Shown in pieces: positions 163-64,000 of a stretch of DNA of 64,000 bases. The notes under the pieces were generated by a model that had not been told where the DNA came from, did no database searches, and was given only the letters and a program-made list of their open reading frames with translations. The stretch lies in contig NW_026859100.1 of NCBI RefSeq assembly GCF_026571515.1, positions 62,001 to 126,000 on the forward strand. The letters run 5' to 3'. The stretch is from Ruditapes philippinarum (Eukaryota). Each line of letters starts with the position of its first letter. Position 1 is the stretch's first letter. The position numbers were made by a program, and so were the translations under genes.

Positions 163-1943
163 CACAAAAGGAAGAAGAACAAAAAAGACAAATACATGAG
201 GATAGAGGGAGAGGATTCAGAATGGTGTGCTGTTGACTTGGGTGAGTGATAAGTACTGTGTATTATTGGGTATATTACATTGATCTAAGGTAGATAATCA
301 TTACCTAAATTGGACCTGAAAGTATTAGTATTTGCTATATAGAGAATAACATGCTACTGTCTTTTGATATCAATTTTATCAGGCGAGGCTGATATGGGCT
401 AGAAAGGGCGAGGCTTGCCGAGCCCTTTCTGCCCATATTAGCCGAGCCTGATAAAATTGATATCAAAAGACAGTAGCATGTTTTTCTATTTATCATGTAA
501 CACATAACAACTGTCAAAATAAAAGAATAATCTACTTTTAAATAGCGAATTTCGTTAAAAAGGGGGATTTTTGTTCAAAGAAATAATTCTTGAAAAAAAT
601 TCCTCCGCCTCTGAAACTTAGAATTTGTTATTGGCGGCCATTTTTTCTTTCGACTCGGATAAAAGATACAACAGATTGTAGGCCTAATACAATAAATTCT
701 TACCTTTAATTTAAACATCGATCCAAAAATCCACTTAGAATCACATAAACTAAACTTTACTGCAATTTTTGTCTTAAATTGTCAAATTCAAAAGTTCAGG
801 ATAATTTCAATCAAAGAAAAGTCAAATCGGCAATCAAACACAAGCTACACAAACATGCGTCTTATTTTTTAAACGAAACAATTTGTTCACTTATTGAATA
901 ATAATCCGGCTAAATAAAGTAAACATTTACAAGATCTCAATGAAAATCATCTAGCCTGTTTGTTATGATTACATGTAGTATGACGTGAACATCGATGATG
1001 TCATTTGCAATATAAATTATGACGTCACTTCATTTAGTTGGAGCTAAAACTATTCGCTATCTAATTTATTCGTAATTGAAATCGAAATAATAGGCCTAAA
1101 TATCGCACCTTGATTCAAGACTTGTAAGGGTATGAGATTACATTGTAGAACTCACATGCTGGTAAAAATGAGAATATAAGCAATTGAAAAAAGTCCGTTA
1201 AAATGGGAGGGGCTTATTTTTGATATCAGGTTACTGACCTGATATCAAAAATAATTATCAGGCAAGTGTTATCGGGCAGTTACCATAGTAAGTATTAGTA
1301 TTTGCTATAAGTATTAAGACAAATGGAAACTTTTAAGAGAAATTATAAATATTTGCTAACAAGTATTGAGAAGAAAGAAAACTTTTAATGGGGGTATAAT
1401 GCTTTGAGGCTGTCCAGAAGTCTGGCCATCTTGTTGTTCGGCCATCTGTGTGAGCCTATTCTCCAATACGGCTTAACTAGTTTTAATAAAATATGAGTAT
1501 AGGAGTAACAAACTTGTAGTCTGCTTACACATATTATAAGGAACTTGACCTTGTTATTTTGAACTCTTTTTGGAAATTTATGTGGATTGCAAGTGCTGTT
1601 TGCAATGTTTAAATAATTTTCTTTGTTAACTTCAAAATAGTTTGCTTTTAAATACATTTTGGAAATTTTCACAAAAATTAGCATGAATCTGGAGGCATGC
1701 TGCTTTAAAGGATAATGATTAAAATAACGTTGTTATTTAATTGTAGGTAATGTTGTGCTTCATGTTTTTATGCCAGCCTTAAGGGAGCTGTATGACCTCG
1801 AAACACTGTGGACCGTTGGAGCAAAGTTTGATCCCCAGTGTACAGAGGCTACTGCAGACCCGTACGTCTTCTCTGCAGATGATCTCCCTTGGCTAAAAGA
1901 ATTGGAGCAGGGTGCGTTTAACTCCGATGCACAGAATTCATGA
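163..1943 (+). CDS. MALSU1: Mitochondrial assembly of ribosomal large subunit protein 1 (RsfS/Iojap family), 3' part only; join(163..241,1747..1943)
   Basis: Exon 163-241 (tttttttcag| ... G|gtgagt) encodes HKRKKNKKDKYMRIEGEDSEWCAVDL. It splices in phase 1 to ttgtag|1747, giving G-NVVLHVFMPALRELYDLETLWTVGAKFDPQ...NS*(TGA 1941-1943). The IEG-x4-W-x2-vD-x-G-x3-lH-x7-R-x2-YdLE-x-LW pattern is the RsfS/MALSU1 signature. Upstream exons lie outside the window. Confidence 0.9.
320..1309. mobile_element. Unclassified ~950-bp insertion with a long terminal hairpin, flanked by a 20-bp direct repeat
   Basis: AAGTATTAGTATTTGCTATA at 320-339 and 1290-1309. A ~150-bp imperfect palindrome lies at ~339-490 and a second small palindrome (ttatttttgatatcagg...cctgatatcaaaaataa) at ~1214-1254. 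Located in a MALSU1 intron. Confidence 0.6.
1550..1704. mobile_element. Right end of a TTAA-target MITE (family with TIR AGCWGCAYGCCTCCAGAT)
   Basis: Ends ...atctggaggcatgctgct|TTAA. The preceding sequence resembles the copies at 14411-14778 and 56156-56465. Left boundary approximate. Confidence 0.55.
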
Positions 1944-28000: not shown

Positions 28001-31000
28001 ACATGTTATATGTAATGACATCGTTTCCTGATTAACACTGATAAATACCACCAAACGTTATAACTACTGCACATGCATAAAAACATTGAGCTGTATAGGT
28101 GCATGCATGAAAACAGCTTTTGTGTGAGAATCACCACATGTTGTGCAGATTTACAGTTTGTTTTACCTTTTACTATTATCGATCTGTGTAGTATGTTTTA
28201 CTTTAACATAAACATACCATTGGGAAGTTATAATGGCTTTAAAAACCTTGGTGTAAAGGTTCAGTTGATCAATGCTGTAATAAAATATGAGCCGCGTCAT
28301 GACAAAACAAACATAGTGCGTTTGCGACCAGCATGGATCCAGACCAGCCTGCGCATCTGCGCAGTCTGATCAGGATCCATGCTGTTCGCTATCAGTTTCT
28401 CTACTTGTAATAGGGTTTGTAAGCAGGCTGGTCTGGATCCATGCTGGTTGCAAACCCATTATGTTGTTTTTGTCATGACGTGGCTCAAATGTATTTCTAC
28501 TGATCAGACCCATAACAGTGGATTACGATTGCTTTATGCTTTAAAGTTATTACATACATATATATAATCCAGGTGTTTTTGCACTACTTGATCTTTCATT
28601 GTTTAGAATGTTTTAAGAGCATTAATCATGATACCTTAGAAAAGAAAACACCTCCCTGCCAGAAATTATAAATACCTGTTTTATTCCTTACATTTGTATG
28701 CACCTATGGTATGGATTTTTCATTTATAATTTAAGCCTGCCTTTTCCCCTGGCCACAACTAATCTCTCTAACCCAAATTGCCTTTTATGAGTTTTGCCTA
28801 CCAATGCCTTATACTGTAACCAAAATGATTTTTGTTATATAATAAAGTTCCTTCTACCTCTTATATAAGAATTTTCCAAGTGCATATACACTTAAAGGGA
28901 ATTGACCTATAATGTTCTTAAAGGGAATTGCTCTATAATGGAAGGCCTGAAATACTATAAGTACTTATCAATATTGATAGTATCTAGTATTAGACATAAC
29001 AACAAACTTCGATAGAATTATATATGAATATTTTTGGCAAGTGTGAATTCTATACATGATCTGATATTACATATATTCATTTAGCAGATAATAAAATTGT
29101 TCTAAAACAGAATGCATGTATTATTCTTCATTTTTTAAATGTACATACAAAATCACTAAGATCTTTATCAACAGTTTGATTTTTATTCAAAGAAATATCC
29201 AAAGATACCTTTCTATTGTTTTTATCAATATTTGAATTATTTTTATCAATATTGGAATATTTGGAAAATTTGCCGATCGTAGACCAATCCACTTTAAATG
29301 GCAAATATGCCTTTGTAGACCAATCCACTTTAAAATGAATTCACTTGTATTTCATACTTCTTTTCAAATGAATTTTCTTTTATAATTTATATCTCATTTT
29401 TGCTACACAGTATGCTGACCCAGTGGCGGACCTGTTGGACAAGTGGGGAGTTTTTAGGGCGCGTTTATTCAGGGAATCATGTGTCTTTCATAGGGGTAAC
29501 TATGTCAAAGTAAGTATAGTTATTACATAGATTTGACACTTGGAAACTGATTATTAAACAAGCTGATAAATATTAAGCTGCAACTGTTGTAGCCATACAT
29601 AAATTAAAACAAGACGCTCCTTGAAGGGCGTTTCGCAGCTCTCCATTCTCCATTCGAGCCAAGTCTAACAAAGCTTGTCCATAACAGAAGTAGGCATCTG
29701 CACATTTTGTTATCTTTAATAAGTAATTGATTGATTGATTGGTTGATTGATGAATAAACAGATTGATGGATGGATCTTTGAATGATTGTGTGATTGATTG
29801 ATTGATTGATTGATCATAAACATGATAAACTGCATAATATTACATGTATATGAAAGGACTGAGTAGAAAAGACTTTGTTTTATAGCTTATCTACGAGGGT
29901 TTATATTTATCGCTATTTTATTACTTTATATACATTTTTAGTATTTGAGAATGTTGTGTTTTACATATATGACATCTGTTTGTTAAGGTACTTGTCAAAG
30001 AATGTTTTGTAATTTTAACAGTTGTCCTTCATAGAGAGGCAAAATATGTACATGTACATACAAATATATATAGAATGTTTAAAACTAGCTAAGATGAAGT
30101 ATGGAGGCTATATTTGAATATTGGAATGTTTTTCGATAGAATTTTTAATGCAATGGTAAATCAGTGATATAAACTCTAACCATGCAGGAAGCAACTGAAT
30201 CTTCCCCTGCTACCAGTGCAGACCAATATTGGCAAACACATAACGTCTGCGCTATTATCTATTTTAGTCTTATTCAGATTTACGTTGAATTTTTTTTTAT
30301 TCTGTCCAGATTGAAAGATAGACAAGTCCATTTAAGATATTTAGCAGGGAAATGGTTTAGATGAAAATGGAAAGGTTATTTTGAATGTTATAACAGAATT
30401 TTGAAGGCAATGTATTGTTTAATCATGGTCTGCACTTATTGCTATTCAGTCAGTACATATTTTGACATTTTCCCATAAAAGGATGAATGTATTTGTCCGG
30501 ATTTAAAAAAGTGACAATATTGAGTGTGGTAATGGTCCAATTATTTGGTTTATTTGAATCACATTAACTAATTAAGAATAACTAATGAAGATAATTCTAG
30601 CACACACTGACATTGCATCAAAACATATCTATGATACAGTCAAACCTTGTTTTGCTCGAACTCGGAGGGTTCAGGCAAAACTGTTTCGAGAAATCGGTAG
30701 TTCACTGTAATTAAAATGTTTACAACATAATCATGAATCAGAAAGAAAATCAGAATAAAGTCAGAATACATGTGTAGAGCTCTATATATTTATTATGTTA
30801 TAACGGATGTATATGTTAATTTCATTTTTTCAGGACTTAAGTCGACTTGGACGTGATCTAGGTCAGGTGATAATTATAGATAACTAATTTATATGTTTAT
30901 TACATTATTTTCAGGACTTAAGTCGACTTGGGCGTGATCTAAGTCAGGTGATAATTATAGATAACTGATATATATGATTATTACATATTTTCAGGACTTA

Positions 31001-45905: not shown

Positions 45906-46841
45906 CCCCCACTCCCCCACCCCCCCAAAAAAATAAAAATAAAATGAAAATCTGATTTCTTATGTCAGGATGCTTTAATTTCTACCATATACATTCTTTT
46001 TATGGTCACAAGCTGTCAAAATAAACAAAATGAACAAAATGTCAGAAAATATGCACAAACAGTATCCGACCCTTGAGACATGTAATTTTAACAGAAATTG
46101 TCAATTTTTATTACAATAATTGCCAATTACCTGATGATGTATATGAGGATCATTATTATACTGTAGATATTTAGCCTCCCTATATACAGACATATTCATG
46201 ATTTACGTACATTGGTTATTAACAGTAAATAGATAAATATGTACATGTTAAACAAAACAAAAAGCCCTTGTATAGATATAGGGGTTTTAATCATGAAATA
46301 TTTTGTATTTTTTCTGATTTTAACATGAAATAAAAGAATAATATTCATTTTGTTTGTCCTTTTGTTTCATACTGAATGCATTTGTAAACCAGTTTGAGGA
46401 ATATTACATTAAAGGAACTCCACTGAGGTTCAATGGCCCAAAACATAAAAAAAATGAAGATGAAGTGTTCATATGTTGCTAAGTAACAACCTTCCTTTAA
46501 ACCTTTGTAAAATTATTTCTAGATAGTGTACTTTTCAAGTTTTCATGCAGTACAGCTTGAGCTTTTAGGATCGTTGTCCGTCCGTCGTCCGTATGTTTGT
46601 CGTCCGTCTGTCAGCAATTTATGTAAAATAACATCTTTCTTAAAACCACAAGGCCAAAATGATGAAACTTAGCAGAAATTATTTTTCTGCTTGCATGAAG
46701 CTTAAGTTTATTTCTGTCAGCCAGGCCTTGGGAATTTTAGGAAATATTAAACCATGTTACATGACCATACATGCTTGTTTTTCCTTCAAACTTTTAAACG
46801 TTTTCCCGTTTTACATATGTAAATATAGATATGCATAAATA

Positions 46842-49800
46842 TTAAGCTGTAAATATACAGTAAGCAGCATCATAGTGCGTCTTGTACACTCGTTTGCCAT
46901 CAACCACAATTTTGCACGTGTGTAGTCCAGGTGACTGACTGACGTCACATCCGGGGTCACTGTAATATAGAGGTGCTCGTGATGTTGTGTCACTCAACCA
47001 ACCGCAGCTGTAACACAAAATATTTAACATTTATTAATCTTTGCATCGTGATTAAAATAAATTAATCATGCAAGTTAAAGAAAATTCTCTGCGCTAGTTT
47101 AATTTTTCCTTCTTAGCCAATGTAAAAAATGCACTAGGCCCTACCCCTAGAATTTTTTTTTTAAATCCCATAAAATTTGAAATTCTTTCTAAGATTAACT
47201 GGGACAAAAAATAAACGAAGAGTATTTTGAAAGCATACGAAAGATTTCTAACAGATTGATACCCGGTTTATATTCTTATAGCCGTACAAATTTCGGCGCC
47301 AAAGGGCAAAGGTGTGACTGAGGTGTTGTACTAAAAAGCTCAAAACCATATCGGCTTTCAGTCAGTGCTAAATCAGCGCAGTGGTGTATTTTCAAATAGC
47401 AGAGGCACTGACTTCAAATGGACATGCAATTCAAATTTGCACAGCGTTGGGTGAGTGGGGGTCGGGCCAGTTGAGCTACTCCTTTGTCCACCATTAGGCC
47501 TATCTCAAGTAATTGTCCTGATCGAACGACCCCCCCCATTCAATTTTTCAAAACAAATTCAGGTATGTCAATGGCAACAATCAAGTGATAAAAATATCAC
47601 GTATATTTTTTTTATATACAAACCAACAAAGATGGTAGCCTTCATCTCTGATATTTGACAACTCCCTGTGTGTTGCTAGGCGACCATCAAGTGACTGACA
47701 GAGCTCCTCGGCCTCGCCAAACGTCATTAATCTGGAATCACTGAACTTGACAGCGGATACTGTCCAGACGGTAAAAATAGATTATTAGTTATATATGAGC
47801 CGCGTCATGACAAAACCAACAGTCTGATCAGGATCCATGCTGTTCGCTATCAGTTTCTCAACTTGCTATAGGGTTTGTAAGCGAACAGCATGGATCCTGA
47901 TCAGACTGCGCGGATGCTGGTTTTGTCGTGACGCGGCTCATATTATTTTGTTGTTACTATTCAATACAGAGTCAGTTACCTGAATAATACAATCAAAGGG
48001 CTGCAAGCTCTGTGGTATTTTCTGATCCCTGCAATCTAAATCGTACTGTATATCTGTATGTGTTTTCCTGCATAAGTTTATTTTTATGTACTATAAGTCA
48101 TCTTGCAGGGCACCAGAGTTTGATACATACGGAATTTTGCATAACTAGAGTTGCATCAAAAAATAATTTATGTTCATTTTTTATGATAGCCACACTTTAT
48201 CCTTGCATATCGTGGCTATTTCCTTAACAAAGACACTAAAAAAAAAGAATTAAAAAAATGTTGACTCGACTGGGATTTGACCTCTCACATATCAAACGAG
48301 CGCGTTACCCTTGCACCACGGAGAAGTTTTAAAATCAAAAGCTGAATAAAATTAAGTCATTCTAAATTTAGAATTTCCATTGCATTTCGGGTTAGGGTAA
48401 TTTCGAGGTATTTTGTTCAGGGTAAACCTGTTGTTTAAATTTGAAGTAAATAATTTAGCGAAAATCTCCTCGCCCAAACAGTCCAACATGTAGAAACTAT
48501 ATATTCAACTACTCGGCAGTCAGATTTATTTGTGTAGTATTCGGTAATCTGGGATATCCCAGGGTAATCGACATCGCTAAAAATAGAATTTTCATTGATT
48601 AAAATCATATTCATCCGCGTAATTTGTGAGTGTGCATTTATTGACAACTCTATAAGCCAACGCTACTTTAAAAGTTTGAAGGTGTAGTAATTTGTTGGAC
48701 ACTTGTAACAAAAAATTGTTCTCTCTTTTAAATTGATGGTTTTTAAGCAGTTTTGAGTGAGAACTAATTTGCGTTGTTAGGACTGTTAGGAAATTTTGTG
48801 TTAGACCGTGGATGTTAGCTATGTATTATCTGATCTGCGATCAGAAAATACAAAAATCAAAATATAATATGGAAGCATCATGCCTCAAAATTTATGCTAA
48901 TTTTCATAAAAATTTTGAAAATGTATATAAAAATAAAATATTGTGAAATGAACAAAGACAATAATTTACACATTGCAAACAGCACTTTGATGTTAATTAC
49001 CAAAAAAAAGGTCAAAATATGCAAAAATAGAAATTACTGCGTTAGTTACGCAGTAATTTAAACTGAAAATCAGTCATAAATCGCACATAACATGTAAATT
49101 ATTACTTGAATCTTGATTCATTTTACTTTTCTTATCTTAGTAAAATTTTCTCAAGTTTGATTTGTCTTAACAATTTTCGCTCATCTGGAGGCATGAAGCA
49201 GTATACATGTACATATATGTATACTATAAGTATTTTTTTAACAGATTCATATAAATATAATGTAGAATAGTAAAAATTAGCAGTTAACAAACCCGATCAA
49301 CCTTGCTTATACACGTAATAAAAGCTGCAACAAATTTATAATGTAGTGAAAAATTGAAAGTAATTTCATATATTTACAACAACCACAGAGCTATATTTAT
49401 AACAAAAGCCCCTGCAACAACGTAATTGTTAAAAATAACAAGGAACTTGGTGCGCATATCAAGAACGTGAAAATAGTGACCTATTTTAAGTCCAAGTTGA
49501 AAAATATACCACAAGAAAAGAAGAATCGACTTTATACCATGTTGTTGATTATTTTCTTTATTGATGCAGATTTTTAAATTACAATCTTCTGTTGTTGAGA
49601 CTACATTTGTTATAACTGAAATGCTTCTTTTCGGTATTAAAAATGAAGCAGGCCTATGCAAAAGCGCAAAATACAATTTATGAAGAAAAACAGTTTTGTT
49701 CTAGAGTACATTTTTTGTTGTAATTTATAGAGATAATTAGTAAAATAACAAACAAGTTAACAAACAATCAATATTCACAAATAAATGTCAATGTAGAATA

Positions 49801-50206
49801 TTGTTTCAACTTGACACGACATACTGACCATGCTTGGTAAATTCTATTTAAATGTTTGCTAATTAAAATAGAAGGAAAAAATGAACTTACTTTTCATATG
49901 CTCGCTTATCCATAAATGATCACTGGATTGGTCGCCATCTGCCGGCACAAGAGTGCTGTTTTGTTGTATGTAATGACGACACACTTTCGTGATTTCATTA
50001 AACATTACAGCGTGACAGTCCAGACATCTCCTCAGACAGTCAAATCGTGAAACAGTTCCAGATTTACTGCGGAACTCGTCTCCTAAAATGGCGACGCTTC
50101 CGGCCCGAAAAAAGTATCGTCCTTGAACATTTCCACCTTCTGACGAATATACAGATAAAGCATGCACACAAATTAACAGGCTGACTAAAATAAAATAAGT
50201 ATTCAT
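46842..50206 (-). CDS. Secreted PAN/Apple-like + Link (Xlink) module protein, 205 aa; complement(join(46842..47007,47624..47759,49891..50206))
   Basis: Exon 1: signal-peptide-like MNTYFILVSLLICVHALSVYS and PAN-like C-x3-C-x2-C-x-A-x2-FN-x5-C, donor A|gtaagt (phase 1). Exon 2: ggacag|TA..., SAVKFSDSRLMTFGEAEELCQSLDGRLATHRELSNIRDEGYHLC, donor TG|gtttgt (phase 2). Exon 3: ttacag|C..., CGWLSDTTSRAPLYYSDPGC...HYDAAYCIFTA*. The total of 618 nt is in frame, and the Link consensus (tf-EA---C---g--LAT--ql------G---C--GW------P------C...dayC) is complete. Confidence 0.85.
47796..47940. mobile_element. Palindromic MITE copy with deletions in both arms
   Basis: tgagccgcgtcatgacaaaaccaac ... ggttttgtcgtgacgcggctca; lies ~36 nt from the exon 2 acceptor of the PAN-Link gene. 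Confidence 0.82.
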
Positions 50207-57844: not shown

Positions 57845-60236
57845 ATGATGGTAATAGCAGTAACATGTTTGACATTGGTTCTCTGTGTGTCGCCGTCGCT
57901 TTCGACCGTCCATATGAACGAGAATGGTAAGTTCGTCATTAAAATTTTGTTTATCTAAGCTTCATTTTCTGGATTTAAATAATTAATTTCGAGAAATCTG
58001 ACAAACTATGTCTTTTACTTACTTTCTCTATTGTTCGACTTCACTTCATTACTTTAGAAATAACACTGCACGTAATGAATAAATAGGTACTATATTCTAT
58101 ATTCGTAGCTTGATTTCTAGTTACCTACTTAACCAGAACTTTCTTTGTTGCTATTAAAATATCTGAGGCACAATGTTTGAGGCATAATAAAATTTGTTTG
58201 CTTTTGAATTCTTAAGGAGGAAAGAACATGATGCCGGAGATGCCAATGGAAAAACCAGAAATGAAAATGGCGAAAAATAACATGATGAATAAAATGCCTA
58301 TGCCTATGATGAAAAAGATGATGCCGATGATGTCGATGAACAACAAAATGCCCATGGACATGAAAATGATGCCAATGGACAACAAAATGATGCCAATGAA
58401 CAACAAAATGATGGACATGAAAATGATGCCAATGAATATGATGCCAATGGACAACAAAATGATGGACATGAAAATGATGCCAATGGACAACAAAATGATG
58501 CCAATGAACATGAAAATGATGCCAATAGACAACAAAATGATGCCAATGAACATGAAAATGATGCCCATGGACATGAAAATGATGCCAATGAATAACAAAA
58601 TGATGCCAATGGATAACAAAATGATGCCAATGGACATGAAAATGATGCCAATGGACATGAAAATGATGCCAATGAATAACAAAATGATGCCAATGGATAA
58701 CAAAATGATGCCAATGGACATGAAAATGATGTCAATGGACAACAAAATGATGGACATGAAAATGATGCCAATGGACATGAAAATGATGCCAATGGATAAC
58801 AAAATGATGCCAATGGATATGAAAAATGATGCCAATGGACATGAAAATGATGCCAATGGATAACAAAATGATGCCAATGAATATGATGCCAATGGACAAC
58901 AAAATGATGGACATGAAAATGATGCCCATGGACATGAAAATGATGCCAATGGACAACAAAATGATGCCAATGGATATGAAAATGATGCCAATGGACATGA
59001 AAATGATGCCAATGGATAACAAAATGATGCCAATGAATATGATGCCAATGGACAACAAAATGATGGACATGAAAATGATGCCGATGGATAACAAAATGAT
59101 GCCAATGGATATGAAAATGATGCCAATGGATAATAAAATGATGCCAATGGACATGAAAATGATGCCAATGCCAATGGATAACAAAATGATGCCAATGGAC
59201 AACAAAATGATGCCAATGGGTAACAAAATGATGGACATGAAAATGATGCCGATGGATAATAAAATGATGCCAATGGATATGAAAATGATGCCTATGGATA
59301 TGAAAATGATGCCCATGGATAACAAAATGATGCCAATGGATAACAAAATGATGCCAATGAATAACAAAATGATGCCAATGGATAACAAAATGATGCCTAT
59401 GGAAATGATGAAAATGATGCCAATGGATATGAAAATGATGATGAAGGATTGCCCTCCTGAAATGATGCCAATGATGATGGAGATGATGAAAATGATGCCA
59501 ATGGACAACAAAATGATGCCAATGGATAACAAAATGATGCCAATGGATATGAAAATGATGCCAATGCCAATGGATAACAAAATGATGACAATGGACAACA
59601 AAATGATGCCTATGGATAACAAAATGATGCCAATGGACAACAAAATGATGCCAATGGACATGAAAATGATGCCAATGGATAACAAAATGATGCCAATGGA
59701 TATGAAAATGATGCCAATGGATAACAAAATGATGCCAATGGATATGGAAATGATGCCAATGAATAACAAAATGATGCCAATGGACATGAAAATGATGCCA
59801 ATGGATAACAAAAATGATGCCAATGGATATGAAAATGATGCCAATGCCAATGGATAACAAAATGATGCCAATGGACATGAAAATGATGCAAATGGATAAT
59901 AAAATGATGCCAATGGATATGAAAATGATGCCAATGGATAACAAAATGATGCCAATGGATATGAAAATGATGCCAATGCCAATGGATAACAAAATGATGC
60001 CAATGGACATGAAAATGATGCCAATGCCAATGGATAACAAAATGATGCCAATGGACATGAAAATGATGCCAATGGATAACAAAATGATGCCAATGGATAT
60101 GAAAATGATGCCAATGCCAATGGATAACAAAATGATGCCAATGCCAATGGATAACAAAATGATGCCAATGGGTCCAGACTGTCCACCAGGTATGCAGGGT
60201 ATGGACATGAAAATGAAAAAGAAAGGTGGATACTGA
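57845..60236 (+). CDS. Secreted extremely methionine-rich repetitive protein (~699 aa after correcting two +1 A insertions); join(57845..57926,58217..60236); candidate hinge-ligament or shell-matrix protein
   Basis: Exon 57837-57926 (tttcag|gtataatcATG) encodes signal-peptide-like MMVIAVTCLTLVLCVSPSLS-TVHMNEN-G|gtaagt. It splices in phase 1 to cttaag|GA GGA AAG AAC ATG(58228), in frame with the (MMPMD[M/N]K)n ORF. Three overlapping + strand ORFs join at A5 runs (58822-58826, 59810-59814) where all other units have A4. Ends GPDCPPGMQGMDMKMKKKGGY*. Variation is mostly synonymous (GAT/GAC, CCA/CCC/CCG/CCT) and indels are whole codons. Confidence 0.88.
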
Positions 60237-61519: not shown

Positions 61520-64000
61520 CAGTTGCTTTTGCTGAATCAATTTGTTACTCAGAATAATCAATTTGTTAATATGTAGAATCAAAAAGTTACTCAGTAGAAA
61601 TTGGTAAATCTGCCTCAGCAGAATCAAATGATTACCCAGCAGAATAAAACGGTCACTCATCAGAACCAATAGATTTCTTTGTCTCAGTAGGATCAAATGG
61701 TAACTCAGCAGAAAAGAATGGTTAAATCTGCAGAATAACCTTTTGATTCTGCAGAATAACCATTTGATTCTTCAGAATAACTATTTGATTCTGCAGAATA
61801 ACCATTTGATTCTGCAGAATAAGCAATTGACTCTGCAAAATAACCATTTGATTCTGACAATTAGCCTTTTGGTTCTCCGGAATACAATTATGGTTCTTCA
61901 GATTAACCAAACCTATTCTGCAGGGTATTGATCTTACAGAGTAACCTTTGATTGTGCAGAATAAACTATGGATTCTGATGAATTACCATTTCATTTGATT
62001 TTGCTTAGTTACCAGCAGTATCAAATGGTTACTTAGCAGAATCAAATCGAATAGTTACTCAGATTAAACAAATGGTTACTCAGCAAAATCAAATGGTTAT
62101 TGAGCGAAATCAAATGGTTACTCAGCGGAATCAAATGGTTACTCAGCAGAATCAAATGGTTACTCAAGAAAATCAAATGATTACTCATTTGGTTACTTAG
62201 CAAAACCAATTCAAATGGTTCCTCAGCAGAATCAATTGGTAACTTAGCAGAATCAAATGGTTACTCAGCAGGATCAATTGATTACTCAGCAAAATCAAAT
62301 AGTTACTTAGCAGAATTAGTTCGTTACCCAGCAAAATCAAATAATTATTCAGTAGGATCAAATGGTTACTCAACAAAATCAAATGGTTACTCAGCAGAAA
62401 TAAATGGTTACAAAACAAAATCAAATGACAACTCCGCAGAATCAAATGGTAACTCGGCAGAATGAAATGATTCTTCAGCAGAACCAAATAGTTACTCAGC
62501 AGAATAAATTGGCTACTCAGCAGAAACAAATGATCCCTCAGTAGAATCAGTAGTTTATTTTGCATAATCTAAAGGTTAGTCCGTAATATCAGTAAGTAAA
62601 CCTGCAGAAGCAGTAGGTTACTCTAATGACTATTTGGTTAATCTGAAGAACCATTATTTTATTCTGGAGGTTACTTGGTAGAATCAAATGCTTATATTGC
62701 AGAATCATTATATTACTCAGTAAAATCAAAGGTTACTATTCTAAATCAGTCGGTTACACCCTGTGGAATCAATGGGTCATGTTGTTATGTTGCTCTTCAA
62801 AGCAATTGATTACTCTGCAGAAACAATATGTTACGTATAAGAATCAATTGATTACTTTGAAAACCAGTAGATAAATAAGTCTGCAGAATCCATTGGTTAT
62901 TCTGGAAAACCTCTATGTAACTGCAAAGAAATTCCATGTTACTGTGAAGAACCTCAATGCTACTGTGAATAAACACTATGTTATTCTGAGGAACCACTAT
63001 GTTATTCTGAGGAACCACTATGTTACTGTGAAGAACCACTATGTTACTGTGAAGAACCACTTTGTTACTGTGAAGAACCACTATGTTACTGTGAAGAACC
63101 ACTATGTTACTGTGAAGAACCACTATATTACTGTGAAGAACCACTATGTTACTGTGAAGAACCACTATGTTACTGTGAAGAACCACTATGTAACTGTGAA
63201 GAAATCAATATGTTACTGTGAAGAACCACTATGTTTACTAAGTGAAGAACCACTATGTTACTGTGAAGAACCACTATATTACTGTGAAGAACCACTATGT
63301 TACTGTGAAGAACCACTATGTTACTGTGAAGAACCAATATGTTACCGTGAAGAAACCAGTATGTTTCTGTGAAGAACCAATATGTTACTGTGAAGAACCA
63401 CTATATTACTGTGAAGAACCAATATTTTACTGTGAAGAACCACTATATTACTGTGAAGAACCAATATGTTACTGTGAAGAACCACTATTTTACTGTGAAG
63501 AACCACTATGTTTACTGTGAAGAACAAATATGTTATTCTGAAGAACCAATATGTTTACTGTGAAGAACCAATATGTTACTGTGAAGAACCAATATGTTAC
63601 CGTGAAGAACCACTATGTTACTGTGAAGAACCAATATGTTACTCTGAAGAACCAATATGTTACTGAGAAGAACCAATATGTTACTGCAAAGAACCACTAT
63701 GTTACTGTGAAGAACTAATATGTTATTCTGAAGAATCAATATGTTACTGTGAAGAACCAATATGTTACTGTGAAGAACCAATATGTTACTGTGAAGAACC
63801 ACTATGTTACTGTGAAGAACCAATATGTTATTCTGAAGAACCAATATGTTACTGTGAAGAACCAATATGTTACTGCAAAGAACCACTATGTTACTGTGAA
63901 AAAAACCACTATGTCACTGTGAAGAACCACTATGTTACTGTGAAGAACCACTATGTTACTGCAAAGAACCACTATGTTACTGTGAAGAACCAATATGTTA
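61520..64000. repeat. 21-bp minisatellite: degenerate AATCAAATGGTTACTCAGCAG units grading into homogeneous GAAGAACCA[C/A]TATGTTACTGT units; runs off the window end
   Basis: 21-bp periodicity throughout; the block at ~61728-62013 is in reverse orientation. Confidence 0.9.

Follow-up and report, generated by a model that had tools for sequence, protein, structure and literature searches.

A secreted clam protein joining a PAN-like domain to a Link module, likely a divergent member of a bivalve family

The stretch analyzed here, hereafter the window, comprises 64,000 nucleotides from Ruditapes philippinarum (RefSeq contig NW_026859100.1, positions 62,001 to 126,000 of the forward strand). On its minus strand, between positions 50206 and 46842, it carries a gene whose 205-residue product joins a signal peptide and what is credibly a divergent PAN domain to a C-terminal Link module. 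Sequence comparisons indicated that the gene is likely a divergent single-copy member of a bivalve family of PAN+Link proteins, a sister clade of which has been expanded by tandem duplication in this genome. The two modules are known ones; their combination as PAN+Link is undescribed, and RefSeq and UniProt already carry it under automatic entries. The original prediction, made from the letters alone, had called the gene unannotated and its host an apparent protostome. The host is indeed a protostome, a venerid clam, but the gene is not unannotated, because the spliced product is identical, letter for letter, to RefSeq XP_060602025.1, the 'uncharacterized protein LOC132755224' of R. philippinarum.

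The three coding exons span 50206-49891, 47759-47624 and 47007-46842 (316, 136 and 166 nt); as in the phase-compatible model first proposed, all splice sites are GT-AG, the introns (47760..49890 and 47008..47623) are in phases 1 and 2, and the frame is open throughout. Two GT-AG combinations occur within a few bases of the exon ends, and the open frame is found in this one only. A transcript contig of 480 nt (run X1, record 1, depth ~5) maps in order to 50045-49891, 47759-47624 and 47007-46819, reproducing exactly the predicted junctions 49891 to 47759 and 47624 to 47007 and reaching into the transcribed beginning of the 3' untranslated region (46819..46841). A second contig spans the start of the gene (50224-50046). 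Junction support thus consists of one contig, in one of the four runs examined, and the RNA nature of run X1 is a tool's guess, none of the listed runs that contain the stretch being registered as RNA; that the join is spliced points by itself to a transcript. In X21, a raw RNA run, the exon bins had read depths of 0.2-2.7; there was almost none in X2, and X23, one of the two raw RNA runs, had zero reads on the gene. A functional, weakly expressed gene is considered the best explanation. Outside the protein, intron 1 holds a very high-copy, partly palindromic repeat (47791..47950, no strand assigned; depth ~9000 per strand class in run X21), which is interspersed, abundant in RNA runs and similar to a stretch near 28330-28370.

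The C-terminal half of the protein is a true Link module. The whole protein matched the Xlink profile (PF00193) with 55.7 bits (E 6e-15, cut-off 27), and the two exons encoding the module tile this profile: exon 2 (47624..47759; Cys126, Cys150 and two bases of the Cys151 codon) matched positions 9-47 with 28.1 bits, and exon 3 (46842..47007; Cys152, Cys171, Cys182, Cys201, the stop codon and, ahead of the last strand, a loop lengthened by 9 residues) positions 47-91 with 19.9 bits. The four canonical Cys, recognized by eye in the original prediction, are residues 126, 150, 171 and 201, with spacing X23-X20-X29. The first two intervals are those of LYVE-1 (X23-X20-X20), whereas the stretch between the third and fourth Cys is 9 residues longer in the clam protein. 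By sequence, the closest solved relatives were aggrecan G1 (E 3e-15), TSG-6 (9e-8) and LYVE-1 (5e-5).

Structural modelling pointed the same way. A first model, from a 20-row alignment, was poor in the Link half (predicted local distance difference test score, pLDDT, of 40-56 over residues 141-200, with 66-81 in the PAN core) and gave no Foldseek match with E < 0.001 for it. A second, from a 42-row alignment, reached pLDDT 77-95 over the Link (residues 111-205). The predicted Link fold consists of two helices and two small sheets, without the long loop of C-type lectins. It matched aggrecan G1 with Z 14.9 (root-mean-square deviation, rmsd, of 2.4 over 96 residues), mouse LYVE-1 with 14.1, human LYVE-1 with 13.6, TSG-6 with 12.3 and CD44 with 10.3. 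Link structures superposed with rmsd 1.9-2.7 over 95-99 residues; the next row had Z 8.0 and C-type lectins reached at most 7.2, a ranking with which Foldseek concurred. The comparison with TSG-6 and CD44 suggested beforehand as a check on the fold thus came out in favor of a Link. No Lectin_C (PF00059) match was obtained with the whole protein at E 0.1, and exon 2 alone gave 12.8 bits. A degenerate C-type lectin was rejected, the Xlink score being well above its cut-off and Link structures ranking far above C-type lectins. The clam module shares with TSG-6, aggrecan G1/HAPLN, LYVE-1 and CD44 the Link fold, the four canonical Cys and an equivalent of His45, and with TSG-6 small size and secretion; its partner domain is a PAN, whereas that of the vertebrate proteins is a CUB or Ig domain or a membrane anchor.

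Exon 1 (49891..50206) encodes the signal peptide (approximately residues 1-22) and the PAN/Apple domain (approximately residues 26-105; Cys 57, 61, 64 and 76) and ends in phase 1, intron 1 lying at the PAN/Link boundary. The signal peptide (50141..50206), whose cleavage site was estimated without a dedicated predictor, is the sole strongly hydrophobic stretch (Kyte-Doolittle window 2.9, against at most 1.4 after residue 30) and is a helix at residues 3-21 in the model, in agreement with the secretion originally proposed. An N-glycosylation sequon at Asn83 is kept in the Mercenaria orthologue described below. The PAN-like domain, also part of the original prediction, was borne out by the predicted fold, with a profile score below the Pfam cut-off: PAN_1 (PF00024 clan) gave 17.5-18.6 bits (cut-off 21.4; E 0.002-0.004), and 19.7 bits for the orthologue. 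In the first model, residues 26-106 matched 4a5t with Z 9.7 (rmsd 2.8 over 75 residues) and the HGF N domain with Z 8.8 (rmsd 2.1 over 73), followed by the HAI-1 MANEC domain (8.5), the Sarcocystis lectin SML-2 (7.5) and TgMIC4 (7.2). The leading structural rows over residues 24-108 were PAN/apple, the best 12 including HGF, factor XI/kallikrein apple, MANEC, SML-2 and TgMIC4. These Z values of 7-10 exceed the tool's background only modestly, which tells against the assignment; on balance a divergent PAN domain is credible.

The place of the gene within a family was addressed by comparisons within the clam genome and beyond it. In Mercenaria, LOC123538626 is an orthologue over the full length (53% identity over 205 residues; 43 of 83 residues identical in the PAN and 58 of 100 in the Link), which keeps all 11 Cys of the mature region, including the CCC run and Cys182, and adds a twelfth in the PAN. 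The clam genome gave 23 Xlink matches at E <=10, two of them the exons of this gene and two the halves of one frameshifted copy, so that about 20 Link loci remain besides the gene, perhaps with some haplotype duplicates among them. Upstream DNA was examined for the best 16 loci and 13 were scanned for PAN; signal-peptide and PAN exons matching PAN_1 or PAN_3 were found at all 13, eight above a cut-off, each with a phase-1 donor at its end and, after it, a Link in one exon that runs to the stop codon. Nine of these paralogues look intact (eight by script, one by reading), and others have stops, frameshifts or a lost donor. A tandem cluster (G000:C12868:259000-302700, L019-L024) packs at least five PAN+Link copies into 42 kb; two of them look intact and three are broken, and copies with and without a third Cys pair stand in it side by side. 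Nine kb upstream of a PAN+Link copy on contig G000:C1391, a frame of 226 residues on the minus strand (L037:9183-9860) looks by eye like a cytochrome P450 first exon.

Outside this genome, PAN+Link proteins were found in Mercenaria (LOC123538626, LOC123530726, LOC123562889), in one Logan transcript and in the unionid Sinanodonta (KAL3868208.1, with two PAN+Link units). The architecture search therefore did not leave one gene, as the original prediction had implied, but a small family in the clam genome and in other bivalves. The Mercenaria and Sinanodonta proteins and Ruditapes LOC132733177 resemble the product of the gene in domain order and third Cys pair, the venerid ones being 187-206 residues long; except for that of the orthologue, their PANs are unalignable to the clam gene's. 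By name and coordinates, the coral 'Apple domain-containing protein' A0A3M6TTD9 (Pocillopora damicornis, 237 residues, Xlink at 144-235) also has an Apple followed by a Link at similar size, but its Link is without the third Cys pair. A supplement of PMC12383584, which is cited here and below from the parts available, includes Owenia proteins of 181-211 residues with a C-terminal Link. Other unusual non-vertebrate Link architectures encountered were amphioxus P0001, with eight Link and eight LDLa repeats and laminin G domains, amphioxus P0049, with MACPF and two Links, and P0003. Intronless three-Link proteins, P0037 and P0077, were found on metagenome contigs of 20-23 kb and may belong to the viral or microbial kind that PMC12383584 mentions.

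The gene has the signal peptide, PAN, phase-1 intron and C-terminal Link with third Cys pair of bivalve PAN+Link proteins, and the preferred reading is that it is an old paralogue of the expanded clam genes. Two findings weigh against this. Its PAN has no significant similarity to the paralogues' PANs (phmmer E >=0.11; hhalign probability 16%), and in a tree of Link sequences (63 rows, 94 columns) the gene and its Mercenaria orthologue (100/99) sit on a long branch outside a well-supported (97/92) clade of 14 venerid and mactrid rows that holds the paralogues. For these two reasons common family membership is likely, not proven. The same observations would be expected if PAN and Link had been fused independently by phase-1 module shuffling, making the gene no paralogue of the expanded ones. 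Such an origin, which we regard as possible but doubtful, is also favored by intron 2, which is absent from the paralogues (of the 23 Xlink matches, this Link alone is clearly interrupted by an intron), and by the PAN Cys spacing, CxxxC-xx-C against CxxxC-x5-C. On the other side, domain order and intron phase are as in the paralogues and the third Cys pair is common to both. Moreover, a unionid PAN+Link unit can be aligned collinearly with the protein from the PAN into the Link (probability 96%, to which the Link contributes most), and the tree places the Link of the gene, loosely (84/89), together with other bivalve rows and one further protein; the deep forks of the tree are weak because the columns are few. 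The four-Cys core of the PAN is kept in the orthologue and aligns with the four Cys of the paralogues, the second gap being 2 residues instead of 5. Searches of the clam's own genome with exon 1 and exon 2 gave no match beyond the gene itself.

Intron 2, of phase 2, lies in the codon after the second canonical Link Cys. It may have a counterpart in CD44 and LYVE1, to which the original prediction ascribed a phase-2 intron at this point; no paper giving that position was found. In two metagenome scans for related loci, aimed at intron positions elsewhere, 0 of 99 and 0 of 189 pattern matches were confirmed.

The three extra Link Cys noticed originally are present, at 151, 152 and 182, but they are not private to this protein, two of them being a covarying pair found across a clade. 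One member of the pair follows the second canonical Cys by two positions, and the other lies in the strand that comes after the third canonical Cys. Of 408 domains found, 351 were parsed, related rows that are mostly vertebrate lecticans and for which a test value is therefore no fair probability; both Cys were present in 39, both absent in 309 and only one present in 3. Three clam paralogues have lost the two together. The pair was seen in venerid, mactrid and unionid bivalves, the nemertean Lineus, Owenia and some amphioxus proteins, and was absent from the lectican, hemichordate, crinoid and coral rows examined. On TSG-6 numbering, Cys152 (codon 47004..47006, minus strand) corresponds to Ala49 and Cys182 (codon 46914..46916, minus strand) to Tyr78, both at the TSG-6 ligand groove (PMC3937638, in the part available). 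Because the pair covaries and occupies these positions, Cys152 and Cys182 probably form a third disulfide inside the ligand groove, across its floor; it counts against this that the bond is read from covariation among related sequences and not from coordinates. Such a bond would leave Cys151 unpaired among the 11 mature Cys, and a homodimer prediction bearing on this residue scored 0.23 against a mark of 0.32.

Differences from vertebrate Link proteins extend over the groove. The available part of PMC3937638 gives Lys11, Tyr12, His45, Tyr59, Lys63, Phe70, Tyr78 and Arg81, together with the Cys47-Cys68 disulfide, as the hyaluronan contacts of TSG-6. The clam equivalents of this contact set, to which the mapping was confined, are S114, R115, H148, A162, Y166, V173, C182 and V185, positions 11, 12 and 81 having been mapped by extending the aligned block. 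The disulfide is kept, as is one of the eight side chains (His45), and two of the three basic contact residues and both stacking tyrosines have no like-for-like match. The Link carries a net charge of -3, and values in five relatives range from -1 to -10. Seven changed contacts and a net acidic Link argue against hyaluronan binding of the TSG-6 type. The replacement of the GYP motif of TSG-6 by RAP, from which a different ligand had first been suspected, is real but by itself weak evidence, because the orthologue keeps an aromatic Phe there and the preceding Arg is the aggrecan state. That the ligand differs from that of TSG-6 is nevertheless probable, with one of eight contact side chains kept. 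Hyaluronan stays among the candidates, because the contact residues differ between Link proteins and Tyr59 has a Phe as its counterpart in the orthologue.

From sequence and models together we favor, with modest confidence, the view that the protein is a secreted, Asn83-N-glycosylated bridge of glycoconjugates with two binding sites and a ligand other than hyaluronan. The Cys152-Cys182 disulfide would span the groove floor where TSG-6 holds hyaluronan, and the groove, net acidic and without most TSG-6 contacts, would bind a short non-hyaluronan glycan, perhaps of mucin or microbe type or a differently sulfated N-acetylhexosamine (HexNAc) glycan. The PAN module would provide the second site, like glycan-binding PAN domains, and the protein could then bridge two glycoconjugates in mucus, haemolymph or matrix. 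This arrangement would parallel mollusc proteins of PAN and C-type lectin, with a calcium-independent Link in the lectin slot. Those proteins resemble the clam protein in secreted size and in pairing a PAN with a module of C-type-lectin fold, the second module of the clam protein being Link and not Lectin_C. The nearest ESM Atlas clusters are indeed mollusc PAN+Lectin_C proteins of 226-246 residues (score 0.83-0.85, 69-142 members), a lead only; being of like size, they suggest a common mollusc scaffold in which Link takes the place of the lectin. Birth and death of copies is a pattern of recognition families among bivalve lectins, and the duplicating, decaying sister clade looks, by analogy, like such a family; the conserved single-copy member may serve a fixed endogenous ligand. 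Several points weigh against a bridge between non-hyaluronan glycans. The residues used for hyaluronan vary in part from one Link module to another, PAN domains frequently have protein and not glycan ligands, the top structural match is aggrecan G1 bound to hyaluronan, and the orthologue keeps an aromatic side chain, Phe, at the Tyr59 position.

The protein could instead be an adaptor between proteins, both modules binding a protease, growth factor or receptor and the glycan groove being vestigial and closed by the third disulfide. We consider this rather unlikely: the top PAN matches do include HGF, HAI-1 MANEC, factor XI and leech anti-platelet protein, the groove is rebuilt, and the protein is single-copy, conserved and of low transcript level, but the architecture parallels mollusc PAN+lectin proteins and the gain and loss of copies in the sister clade is what recognition lectins would show. 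Slightly less probable still is a true hyaladherin, whose Link would bind hyaluronan or unsulfated chondroitin in clam matrix, like TSG-6 or link protein, while the PAN tethers the chain to a protein partner. The intact Link fold, closest to aggrecan G1 and LYVE-1, speaks for it, as do the retained His45 and Cys47-Cys68 disulfide. Hyaluronan has been measured in mussel tissues, where XLINK genes are developmentally expressed (PMC12383584, as available), a report that also weighs against the bridge to other glycans. Set against a hyaladherin are the seven of eight TSG-6 contact side chains that are changed, Cys in place of Tyr78 and the net acidic domain. According to the same part of PMC12383584, moreover, hyaluronan-synthase candidates among protostomes occur in Owenia only, and the models presented neither show nor reject hyaluronan binding, the paper closing with a call for recombinant tests. 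In favor of the bridge, a Ciona Link is cited there as a binder of non-hyaluronan glycosaminoglycans. That the gene is an artefact or pseudogene, or its product a degenerate C-type lectin, is highly improbable: read depth is low, with none in one of two raw RNA runs, and many sister copies are broken, but a pseudogene or chance exon assembly is ruled out by the spliced transcript contig, the RefSeq model and the intact orthologue, and a C-type lectin is countered by the Xlink and structural matches given above.

The available parts of PMC12383584 (2025) describe Link genes in mytilids, a unionid, Dreissena, Owenia and anthozoans, so that Link genes as such were already published for protostomes. 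The bivalve ones resemble the clam protein in being secreted, with a C-terminal Link and a putative ligand; the mytilid XLINKs are 590-1356 residues long with a standalone Link and two loci per genome, whereas the clam protein has 205 residues and a PAN. Within the main text as available, neither PAN nor apple is mentioned, and the table lists no Ruditapes, Mercenaria or other venerid clam. Our literature searches, which left subscription papers and bioRxiv supplements out of scope, gave no description of PAN+Link proteins, in keeping with the earlier statement that none is known to have been characterized, nor of the third Link Cys pair. The ESM Atlas contains no PAN+Xlink cluster of at least 50 members, which shows neither novelty nor absence.

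A broader joint reading can be sketched, although we judge it unlikely as a whole. The Cys pair at Ala49/Tyr78 would be a pre-hyaluronan state of the bilaterian Link, with a disulfide-braced groove for another glycan, and vertebrate hyaluronan binding would have traded the disulfide for aromatic stacking residues. Small PAN+Link proteins, possibly reaching back to corals, would then form an undescribed class of soluble lectins that keeps the old ligand, and the position of intron 2 would be ancient and common to CD44 and LYVE1.

Other features of the window are recorded here. A two-exon gene on the plus strand (57845-57927 and 58217-60236) encodes a secreted protein of ~44-50% methionine with short Met-Pro-Asp-Lys-Asn repeats. 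Its signal-peptide exon ends in phase 1. The reading frame of the long exon changes by one base at A-runs near 58823 and 59811, so that three frames are used; these shifts are either assembly slips or the mark of a broken allele. The protein is reminiscent of methionine-rich ligament or shell proteins of bivalves. At 1728-1940, plus strand, one of 78 frames scanned matched the end of the RsfS family with 23.4 bits, above the cut-off, and we presume it to be an exon of the mitochondrial ribosome assembly gene MALSU1. Long low-complexity tandem repeats with open frames on both strands occupy 62181-63913.

With its ~20 loci, the venerid expansion, absent from the survey in PMC12383584 as available, shows that Link genes are more widespread among protostomes than the survey's database showed, and this wider spread favors inheritance with loss over horizontal transfer. 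The clam protein and its relatives are secreted, have about 185 mature residues and include natural variants with and without the third Cys pair, so that the ancestral ligand of the Link module could be probed with a compact set of naturally varied proteins. Lectins of this PAN+Link kind in clams could also matter for immunity in aquaculture.

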